From: Spirochaetia bacterium
GTDB lineage: Bacteria; Spirochaetota; Spirochaetia; WTKD01; G963693115
Assembly (NCBI GenBank): GCA_965226055.1
Contig: CBDDCA010000003.1
Coordinates: forward strand, 1-64,000
DNA: 64,000 nt
Direction of reading: 5' to 3'
In this document: positions 2,291-5,200 of the stretch, one piece after another
Position numbering within the stretch: position 1 is the stretch's first letter
How the letters are laid out: the number at the start of each line of letters is the position of its first letter
Position numbers and translations under genes: made by a program
The notes under the pieces: generated by a model
Told to the model about the DNA's origin: nothing
The model's input: the letters and a program-made list of their open reading frames with translations, nothing else
Databases searched by the model: none

Positions 2291-5200
2291 ATGAGTGATA
2301 ACAATAATGAAAAATCAGAAGCTAGTTTGGTACTAAATAATCAGAATATAGATAAGCTCCAATTTAAAGAAAGAGCTATTTTAGCAATAGAAGCGGAACA
2401 TATTAACAGTATATTAAAAAAAGATCCTATTTTTCTTAAATCATTCAAGAAAAAATTGTTATCTTTACCCCCAAAGATGGGGGGTACTATTACAGACGAA
2501 AAGATTAATTTAATTTTTAATCAATATAATTCTATCCGTAATTATCTCAATCATACTAAGCATACAGATAGTAAAATAAAGCTAGATTATGAGTTATGTG
2601 ATGTACTATGTAAATTGTATGAGCAGGCATATATAGATAGAAAAGTATCCGCATCCCATAAACAACTTCCTGATACAGATAGAAAAGCATCCGCACCCCA
2701 TAAACAACTTCCTGATATAGATGAACGCTTTTTCTCAGTAGAGGAAGAGAAATTCTTTAAAAAGAGTGAAGGTGAGGATAAGTACTTTTTTACTCTTTTG
2801 GGTGTAATTATGTTTTTGTGCATGAATTTGGAGAAAGATAGAGCCTACCAATTACGAGATAAATTTGATTTTACTAATTCCCAAAAAGAAGATGCTGTAG
2901 CAGTTGCTTTAGGTTCAGAAACTGAAAGTCAACAATGTAGCATTAACGAAAAAGAAGATGCTGTAGCAGTTGCTTTAGATTCAGTGATACAAAAATATAG
3001 TAGAAAAAAAGTTCATAAAATTATAGATAGTAATTGGGATCTTTTTGTGGAAATTCTTGACTATATTCGAAAACCCATAGAGCATAGTCCAAATTATGAA
3101 AATGATGCTGACATTGCACAACAGAAAAATAATGGTACAGATAAAAAGAAATCGAAAAAGAAAAAATTTGACAAAAGAACAAAAAATAAGTACGTGATGG
3201 ATAATTTTATTATCAAATGGATAGAGCTAGGAGAAAAACTTCCTGAACTAAAATTTGCTAAAACAAAAAAAGTAGAAAGAATAATAAAGAGCGAAAAAAG
3301 GAGGGAGGATAAAATAAAAATTACTAAGATACCATATTTTACTACTGAAGGTAGTAAAAAGAAAGATGATATTGATGAGTATTTTAGAATAAATGACATG
3401 TACTGGTGTAAAATTAAGGATAATGATGAGTCACAAAAATATATTGATTTTAAGATGCATAGAGTTCACTTACAAAGACTTGCAAAAAAGATATTAGAGG
3501 GCAAAGAAGATAAAGAAGTTAAAGAAGTTAAAGATGTTATTATTTCATCTATGCTTGAAAATATTAAGGCTGTAAAGGAATTTAATGAAGAATATACAAT
3601 TCCATTTGATGCTGGAGTAGAAAATTCATTAACATTAAAATCAAGTCTTCCAAGAAGTGCTAAGAGAGAGCTAGAGGATCCACCAGAATTAGAAGCAAAA
3701 ATAAAGAAAAGAATAGAGTATTATGACAATCTTTTAAAAAAACCTCCTAAAGAGATACATGGTAAGATGCAGTTTATACTGTGGGCATTACAAAGGCCCT
3801 TGTGGAACTATGACAATAGTGAGGGAAAAAATATATTAAAGATAGATAAAATTACTTATCAGAACATTAGCAAAGCTCTTTGTTATTATAGTGTATATGA
3901 TATAACTGATGTTCAAAAACAGGACGAAGAAACTATTTTTCAAAAACAAGTAAAAAGTGAAATACCAGAGAAATGTAAATATTTAAGAGATTATATTAAG
4001 GATGATATTGTAAAAACTTTTAAATATGTTGTAAAAGCAGCAAAAAAAGAATTAGAGACAGACAAAGAAATATTGCTTGAGTATTCCAGTAAATTTAAAA
4101 AAGAAAAATTTTTTGAAAATAAAGAGGAGGAATTGTTTACTAAACATTCTCTTCGTTTTACAAGGACTAAAAAAGACACTCATCCTGTCTTGCAGAGAAT
4201 AAAAGAACCAAAAAAGCATCCTAAGGATTATCGTAATATTATATGGCTTTCTAAGCATTGGGGGCTTAGTGATTATGAACAAAAAGAAAGAACTTCTAAC
4301 CCTCAAGAGATTAAATTATTTTATCATCAATATATACAAAAAAGTCGAGGCGTAAATTTTCATCCTGAAAATTATCATTATTCTTTACAAAAAGATGAAA
4401 ATGAAAATTTTTTACAACTGGATAAAACTATAATAAAGGAAAAAATAAAAGATTTATCAAAAAAAGATCAAGAGATAGAGAAAGAAAAATTATATGATGC
4501 CTTAATATATTATGAAAATGATAGATTATTATTAGAGATTGCAACTAGATGTATAGATGATAACAATAGTGATCCAAAAAGTAACTTGTATTTTAAATTA
4601 GAGAAATCTTTTGATTTATCTTGTCCATCTTCTAAGGTAATAATAAAAGAAAACAAGAATTCTCTTCAACCATATCATATTCCACTTCGCTATCTTAAAA
4701 ATCTAAGTCTTCTTTTTAGAGAAGAAGATTTTATCAAAGGGATAAAATTGATAAATGAAGGCGATACAGCAATTTTACCACATAAAAAGCCTAATGGTAT
4801 GGGGAATATTGGATATTTTATGCAGATAGTATTACCAACATACAAATCATTTAGTACTGCAATAATACAGGTACTCCTTGAAATAGAGTCTAGAATATTA
4901 TCTCGTGAAGAAAATAGTAAAGAAAATATTGATCTTATAATGAGAAATTCTTTATTAGATGAATTTGATAACAATAAAAAGGATTATATTAGCTTTAATG
5001 AAATGCTTAATTTTATTACTTCATTTTCTAAATTGTCTAATGTGAAGGAAAGAGAATTTATAAAAAAAATCATAAAAGATATATGTAACAATGGAGTATA
5101 TGAAGATTTTGTTTACATGTTAGTATGTGAAAAGTGTAAGGAAGAATTAGTAAAAATTTTTATAAAATATATACGTAACAATGTAGCACATCAGGACTTG

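Follow-up and report, generated by a model that had tools for sequence, protein, structure and literature searches.

A probable scar of off-target spacer integration within a cas13-like gene of a Spirochaetia bacterium

The analyzed window is a stretch of 64,000 nt from the genome of a Spirochaetia bacterium (G000; GenBank contig CBDDCA010000003.1). It opens with a CRISPR array, and the gene that adjoins this array encodes a cas13-like protein. Inside the gene, a 36-bp sequence occurs twice around a unique 30-nt insert. How did a unit with the dimensions of a CRISPR repeat and spacer come to lie in a coding gene? We propose that the unit is very probably the scar of an off-target (ectopic) spacer integration event, and we infer that the integration was carried out by Cas1-Cas2 itself. 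A preliminary description, made from the window alone, had suspected a fossil ectopic spacer acquisition. This suspicion is now supported by the geometry of the unit, the integrase genes of the genome, the recurrence of such units in other genes, empty sites in a sister species of the same genus (genome G001) and a 30-nt donor for one sister unit.

Structure of the unit in the cas13-like gene

The unit and its immediate setting consist of the following features.

2883-2918, forward strand: copy 1 of the duplicated 36-bp target (from the sequence, self-comparison and the G001 alignment)
2919-2948, forward strand: unique 30-nt insert, read as a probable ectopic spacer, which encodes most of SETESQQCSINE
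2949-2984, forward strand: copy 2 of the duplicated 36-bp target (from the sequence and the G001 alignment)
2291-5347, forward strand: cas13-like open reading frame (ORF; P0001) of 1018 aa, the host of the insertion (from the ORF call and homologs)
1-2109, forward strand: CRISPR array with 36-nt repeats and 30-nt spacers, which runs off the contig start

The two copies are 36 nt each, start 66 nt apart and are identical at 35 of 36 positions. Because the bases beyond both ends of the copies mismatch, 36 nt is the true repeat length. The probability that a 35/36 match arises by chance at a fixed offset is negligible. The single mismatch lies at position 30, where copy 1 has G and both copy 2 and G001 have A; the G of copy 1 is the derived base. 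The insert is unlike either flank and has no second copy in G000 (blastn-short; up to 8 mismatches), where the best other match is 14 nt long. The unit is in frame within the ORF, and the peptide KEDAVAVAL occurs at residues 199-207 and again at 221-229. Thus, the preliminary description was accurate in sequence and coordinates when it reported a 36-bp duplication with one mismatch around 30 unique bp, and in frame when it noted that the 66 bp leave KEDAVAVAL twice.

The geometry of the unit is that of the CRISPR systems of the genome. The duplicated target has the length of the system repeat (36 nt) and the insert has the length of the system spacer (30 nt), so that the 36/30/36 arrangement equals that of the neighboring array and of a type II-C array elsewhere in G000 exactly. 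The neighboring array contains 31 intact repeats (30 of 36 nt and one of 37 nt), the last of which ends at 2043, followed by a degenerate terminal repeat at ~2074-2109 that adjoins the cas13-like gene. Its spacers measure 30 nt in 27 of 30 cases, 29 nt in two and 28 nt in one. The correspondence between unit and array lengths, also put forward in the preliminary description, is confirmed by these counts.

The cas13-like gene provides an internal contrast to the unit. A 42-bp tandem duplication, which is missing from the homologs, is found at 2631-2714 on the forward strand, 170 bp upstream of the unit, and consists of 14 residues in 2.2 copies that are 92% alike. This duplication repeats its whole period, and ordinary slippage therefore looks different from the window unit. 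Tandem Repeats Finder (TRF) reports nothing at the unit, where 36 of 66 nt recur and the whole-period repetition that marks a tandem duplication is thus absent.

Relatives of the gene lack the insertion. All four homologs of the cas13-like protein contain a single copy of the segment and are without 20-22 residues at the insertion position. In the DNA of G001, one homolog of the 36-mer is present without an insert, and the sequence directly after it is the one found after copy 2 in the window. The insertion stretch differs in length among the homologs, which fits a tolerated loop; the AlphaFold model of the protein (mean predicted local distance difference test score (pLDDT) of 41.1; predicted template modeling score (pTM) of 0.26) is too poor to confirm a loop or to support a fold search. 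A tolerated insertion of 22 aa, as the preliminary description had it, agrees with the preserved frame and the open ORF, and its placement in a loop is consistent with the length variability. The unit also appears unchanged in contigs assembled from sequencing runs. The contigs of runs X2, X3 and X4 span it with 0 differences, and run X5 gave just three matches of at most 38 nt with 5-7 differences; no joint that skips the 66 bp was seen.

Recurrence of the unit and origin of the inserts

Does the 36/30 arrangement occur elsewhere? G000 was scanned by whole-genome self-comparison at offsets of 21-300 and, in a second scan, at offsets of 31-130, and isolated two-copy units were counted. G001 was scanned likewise as 120 tiles. 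The isolated two-copy units of G000 concentrate at period 66 in the scan at offsets 21-300. The second scan returned 57 single-hit clusters, including 27 at period 75, nine at period 72, five at period 66 and five at period 33, with one cluster each at the other periods. Across the scans, other periods occur at most twice, except 33 (short tandem repeats), 72/75 and the multiples 150, 153 and 225; the 72/75 clusters are attributed to DUF285-type protein repeats. Three of the five period-66 clusters are new units, one is an array-like stretch and the last is a true tandem repeat; the window unit is outside these five because it was grouped with the 42-bp duplication. A genome scan of this kind had been proposed in the preliminary description, and it yielded three more units in G000, all in unrelated genes, and two that are G001's own.

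C2:50051 (G000): 36/30/36 with copies identical at 33 of 36 positions, within a 433-aa ORF and in frame
C6:223125 (G000): 36/30 after the donor match (apparent 38/28), at the 3' end of an RsmE-like gene
C6:574158 (G000, common to G001): 31-36/30-35 with a period of 66, early in a 268-aa ORF and in frame
G001:828637: 36/30/36 with copies identical at 34 of 36 positions, within a 374-aa ORF and in frame
G001:235344: 35/30/35, exact, at the stop/start junction of two ORFs

Together with the window unit, four of the six units are in frame within ORFs, and all six leave the reading frames usable. At C6:223125, the RsmE-like gene has five codons and a stop in place of its last codon, and at G001:235344 (65 bp) the duplication preserves both gene ends. 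The inserts of the units differ from each other. In G001, the C6:223125 site is present as exactly one copy with contiguous flanks at 88-95% identity, which makes it a base-precise empty site, and the C2:50051 site is present as one copy at 72% identity. Conversely, both G001 units are represented in G000 by a single copy at base-precise empty sites. As read from these alignments, five of the six units are lineage-specific insertions with an empty site in the other species, and the sixth (C6:574158) is apparently older. An array lies 0.77 kb from the window unit and 4.4 kb from C6:223125, so that two of the six units are within 5 kb of one, a hint that misses cluster near arrays.

Other stretches encountered in the scans are not counted among the units. 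At G000:C6:446249-446395, a true 66-bp tandem repeat of 2.2 copies repeats its whole period and is not a 36/30 unit. An array-like stretch at G000:C1:29389-29560, which overlaps a 655-aa ORF at that ORF's 3' end, carries a 36-nt repeat (GTTGTGGAT...CCAAC type) ~2.4 times with a period of 66; it was left uncounted, as nothing in G001 aligns with this region. At G001:C1:1862954-1863122 (L121:1754), ~5 kb upstream of cas1, an a-b-a-b-a arrangement consists of three 36-37-nt copies and two identical 29-30-nt inserts. This stretch may be an ectopic unit that was later expanded; it has no alignable empty site in G000 and was likewise left uncounted.

Where did the inserts come from? The insert at C6:223125 has an identified donor. 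Exactly 30 nt match 13 copies of a paralog family of ~4.5 kb (10 exactly and 3 with 1-2 mismatches) that encodes a 1532-aa DUF285/fn3 protein, and the flanking bases of donor and site differ on both sides. The G001 copies of the family match the insert over 27 nt only, which fits an insertion at C6:223125 after the species split. The same donor family is matched by spacer 24 of the II-C array, ~890 bp from the ectopic donor. Spacer 24 is the only one of 111 array spacers that matches G000 outside the arrays at full or near-full length. We know of no process other than Cas1-Cas2 integration that predicts a repeat-length duplication around a spacer-length copy of a sequence that also feeds an array. 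Spacer 24 itself (G000:C6:215242) matches C4:929-958 exactly and further family copies at 1-3 mismatches, and it looks like a candidate self-targeting spacer. The two known protospacers are too few to define a protospacer-adjacent motif (PAM).

The integrase, its target sites and rival explanations

Which enzyme is expected to have produced the units? G000 contains one Cas1 match (PF01867, E 1.9e-32) and a Cas2 match (PF09827, E 2.1e-15). The Cas1 locus is of type II-C, with the order cas1-cas2-array-cas9 and a Cas9-like ORF. Its array consists of 77 repeats of 36 nt, with degenerate repeats at the cas9 end, and a spacer length of 30 nt is seen in 69 of 76 cases. When the II-C and type VI-like repeats are oriented with the leader on the left, their leader-distal halves resemble each other. 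In addition, G001 carries a four-repeat mini-array far from cas genes (G001:C1:1479276-1479500; L101:14076), whose 36-nt repeat resembles the II-C repeat.

In the mechanism that we propose, the genome's only Cas1-Cas2 pair, of type II-C, would have carried a 30-bp prespacer and attacked one phosphodiester bond in each strand of the cas13-like ORF, the two lying 36 bp from each other, rather than a CRISPR repeat. Filling or repair of the gaps would then have left the 36-bp target as two copies with the spacer between them. The resulting scar would be the 66 bp at 2883-2948 or, equally, at 2919-2984, and one later substitution would separate the two copies. Because 36 + 30 equals 66, a multiple of three, such an event would insert 22 residues in frame and leave the ORF open, and this property probably accounts for the survival of such misses in ORFs.

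Likeness to the repeat or to the leader-repeat junction is a reported preference of off-target events and not a requirement. Among 504 segments of the gene, taken at steps of 6 nt, the window 36-mer resembles the repeat most, and its local alignment with the neighboring repeat has a score of 19 (p = 0.005, or p = 0.043 allowing for three repeats). The six sites as a set lean to the II-C repeat ends in a post hoc comparison (p = 0.017), and one G001 site is II-C-like in register (p = 0.001). A CT(T)AT-like start at 4-5 of the six sites in one orientation was noticed post hoc and is not claimed.

Several observations weigh against an integration event at the window unit. The local match to the repeat is gapped and out of register, aligning site positions 14-36 with repeat positions 3-24. 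In register, the likeness is at background (identity and global alignment; p 0.35-0.63), and the ends of the site do not resemble the ends of the repeat (p = 0.93). Therefore, the resemblance of the duplicated 36-mer to the CRISPR repeat that the preliminary description had noted holds as a weak local alignment and fails in register. The empty site of the window unit is a weak one, given that the G001 ortholog shows ~60% identity in its matched part (BLASTP gives 51% for the entire protein) and that its 36-mer homolog is 6 nt longer, which leaves a gap of 60 alignment columns rather than a clean 66. Of the ancestral allele that the preliminary description had anticipated, the single copy without insert was thus found in 4/4 homologs, and the exact loss of 66 bp was not. 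No allele without the 66 bp was seen in the contigs of X2-X4, in which rare alleles are invisible, and these runs come from one study that is possibly the source of the assembly. The C6:574158 unit, which is common to both species, is without an outgroup and has a clean repeat of 31 nt only. Finally, the Cas1-Cas2 of G000 is known from its genes, and its activity is a prediction.

The source of the window insert is a further point on this side. No donor was found in G000 or G001, and searches for exact matches to the 30-mer returned 0 in IMG/VR and 0 in metagenome contigs. The 102-bp unit gave chance matches only (E of at least 0.3) against a phage collection; a blank there has no power, since 0 of 76 genuine II-C spacers matched the same collection. 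The inserts of three sister units also gave 0 matches each in IMG/VR. The BLAST comparison that the preliminary description had recommended produced no match in phage, viral or metagenome DNA and at best 14 nt in the host genome. The window insert presumably derives from DNA that the databases do not contain or from the 11% of the genome that is unassembled.

Could the unit have arisen without an integrase? Replication slippage or tandem duplication, perhaps with filler DNA or with divergence of one half, would render the CRISPR geometry coincidental. Such events do occur in this genome, given the plain 42-bp tandem duplication in the same gene, the duplicated repeat-spacer units of the array itself and the true 66-bp tandem repeat at C6:446249. 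However, a 66-bp tandem duplication yields a 132-bp repeat and not 102 bp with a unique middle, and the 30 nt match neither flank although the 36-mers are 97% alike. The coincidence would be needed six times at period 65-66 in two genomes, and in one unit it would also have had to reproduce 30 nt of a distant gene family exactly. Slippage is thus very unlikely. The preliminary description had named an ordinary tandem duplication and an alignment of the insert with a flank as outcomes that would overturn its reading, and neither occurred. A different insertion mechanism with a 35-36-bp staggered cut, such as another integrase or templated-insertion repair, gains some room because the link of Cas1-Cas2 to these events is not demonstrable from sequence and because the sites are mostly not repeat-like. 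We nevertheless consider it highly unlikely: the genome has just one Cas1 homolog, the lengths of duplication and insert equal the repeat and spacer lengths of this genome, and the mutually different inserts argue against a mobile element. Moreover, one donor family also supplied a genuine array spacer, the site set leans to the II-C repeat ends (post hoc, as above), and one site is like the II-C repeat in register.

The unit could alternatively be a functional element, either a mini-array or a repeat mimic in the mRNA that is bound or cut by the effector for autoregulation, as the preliminary description had speculated. The rank of the 36-mer among the 504 gene segments speaks for such a role, and repeat-like regulatory RNAs in cas loci are described in the accessible text of one report (10.1101/2023.03.03.530964). 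However, the likeness is gapped, spans repeat positions 3-24 only and lacks the 3' third of the repeat, and its corrected p value is 0.043. All four homologs do without the unit, five comparable units lie in unrelated genes that have no CRISPR link, and the copies do not match the system repeat as those of a functional mini-array would. Nothing in these results supports autoregulation, and a functional element is extremely unlikely. Off-target spacer integration remains by far the best account of the unit.

This account opens a broader possibility, which we hold tentatively and consider nearly as probable as its opposite. A type II-C Cas1-Cas2 of relaxed specificity that serves several arrays may act as a recurrent insertional mutagen of the chromosome and as a source of protein segments. 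If so, each miss would add 22 in-frame residues of foreign or self DNA, even to the system's own effector gene. The several arrays served would differ in their leader-proximal repeat ends, and scars would turn up in any genome at the geometry given by its own repeat plus spacer.

The host gene, its surroundings and known systems

What is the protein that received the insertion? Two R-x4-H HEPN motifs are the defining mark of Cas13. The 1018-aa protein contains two such motifs, RNYLNH at residues 83-88 and RNNVAH at residues 962-967, which are conserved in those homologs that cover them. The G001 ortholog has the same array repeat upstream, and the adjacency to an array is thus found in two species. 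Profile searches gave 0 families in NCBIfam, Pfam and PADLOC, with a sub-threshold EF-hand match as the only Pfam signal, and a PDB search gave 0 matches for the single sequence and chance matches for the profile. The nearest Atlas cluster is Cas13d (score 0.75), which serves as a lead only. Four homologs (P0002-P0005) were found among 8000 scored candidates in a search of 5.8 billion proteins, and an ortholog is present in one of 40 related genomes (G001). A protein-query search for related loci found none in genome contigs or metagenome contigs, and an alignment query found G001 only. Therefore, "cas13-like" is a reasonable label for a candidate Cas13, and the effector may represent an undescribed type VI-like lineage, a very small family that current profiles fail to recognize.

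The gene and its surroundings show further features. A 77-nt internal repeat (5053-5129 and 5143-5219; 73% alike) surrounds the C-terminal HEPN motif. Its downstream copy reads IRNNVAHQD and its upstream copy ICNNGVYED, and P0002 is without part of the repeat; the upstream copy looks like a putative decayed duplicate of the motif helix. In the array, repeat-spacer units are tandemly duplicated at 592-723 and 856-987, where two spacers each occur twice in succession, and a third spacer recurs three units apart (1-30 and ~198-225). A second type VI-like locus of the genome, at G000:C1:13497-16892 (L006), contains 11 copies of a related 36-nt repeat with 30-nt spacers and adjoins a cas13-like paralog that is split into two ORFs of 597 aa (P0005) and 278 aa. 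Downstream of the effector gene, between it and gap-pgk-tpi, the window encodes a lone type I restriction specificity subunit at 5560-6720 (PF01420, two target-recognition halves), and neither a methylase gene nor a nuclease gene was noticed next to this subunit.

What do the scars mean for CRISPR adaptation? Prior demonstrations of off-target integration used overproduced Cas1-Cas2 or were performed in vitro. The two sister genomes supply a natural series of six units, of which five have empty sites and one has a donor, and the fidelity of a shared, "plastic" II-C integrase thereby becomes countable. The series indicates that misses can become fixed as insertions of 22 residues within coding genes, and even within that for the effector of the system that borrows the integrase. 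A repeat-length duplication with a spacer-length insert is a simple signature that can be searched in all CRISPR-bearing genomes. The finding also draws attention to a cas13-like effector family that current profiles do not recognize. Off-target integration itself is already known from experiments. In the literature searched, no report of natural, fixed, in-gene ectopic spacer scars was found, and scars that arose in nature, became fixed and lie in frame within coding genes, a cas effector gene among them, appear to be new.

The combination of a II-C integrase with type VI-like arrays has a close parallel in Flavobacterium columnare. According to that study (PMC8092290), the II-C Cas1 acts in trans to load a VI-B array whose repeats measure 36 bp. 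The two cases have in common a II-C adaptation module beside Cas1-less type VI-like arrays with 36-bp repeats, and a repeat similarity that is confined to the leader-distal end; "plastic" is the word that its authors use for the integrase. They differ in that integration in F. columnare takes place in arrays and here in genes, and in that the effector described here matches no Cas13b profile.

Two reports from Streptococcus thermophilus concern integration at unusual sites. In the part of the first that is accessible (PMC6895254), type II-A Cas1-Cas2 integrates off target in vitro and uses a ruler for the second site. The low-level use of non-CRISPR sites and a second cut set by distance are shared with the present units, and a cut set by distance results in a constant duplication length. 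However, the in vitro events are probably half-site integrations into plasmid sites that resemble the leader-repeat junction, whereas those inferred here are full-site, genomic and mostly at sites that are not repeat-like. The second report (PMC7999890), in its accessible text, describes integration away from the leader-proximal repeat, as here; its "ectopic" target is an internal, genuine array repeat, whereas the target in the cas13-like gene is no repeat. Ordinary slippage duplication also produces in-frame direct repeats within a gene, and it differs in that its halves are alike throughout, unlike a unit with a unique middle.

The closest known counterpart is the formation of "neo-CRISPR" loci by off-target Cas1-Cas2 integration (Nivala, Shipman and Church 2018, Nat Microbiol 3:310), as it is presented in citing papers (10.1101/148544, PMC7054753, PMC6546382, PMC6698737, PMC9456107). 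The setting, according to these papers, was the E. coli type I-E system with overproduced Cas1-Cas2, and the accessible text of a citing preprint speaks of only "circumstantial evidence" for off-target integration, in two other species. As in the loci so described, a spacer-length insert is combined here with a repeat-length duplication of a non-CRISPR target and with an adaptation integrase. In contrast to them, the units reported here are natural and fixed, belong to a type II-C and type VI-like setting and lie in or at the ends of coding genes, including that of a cas effector. They are accompanied, in addition, by sister-species empty sites and one identified donor.

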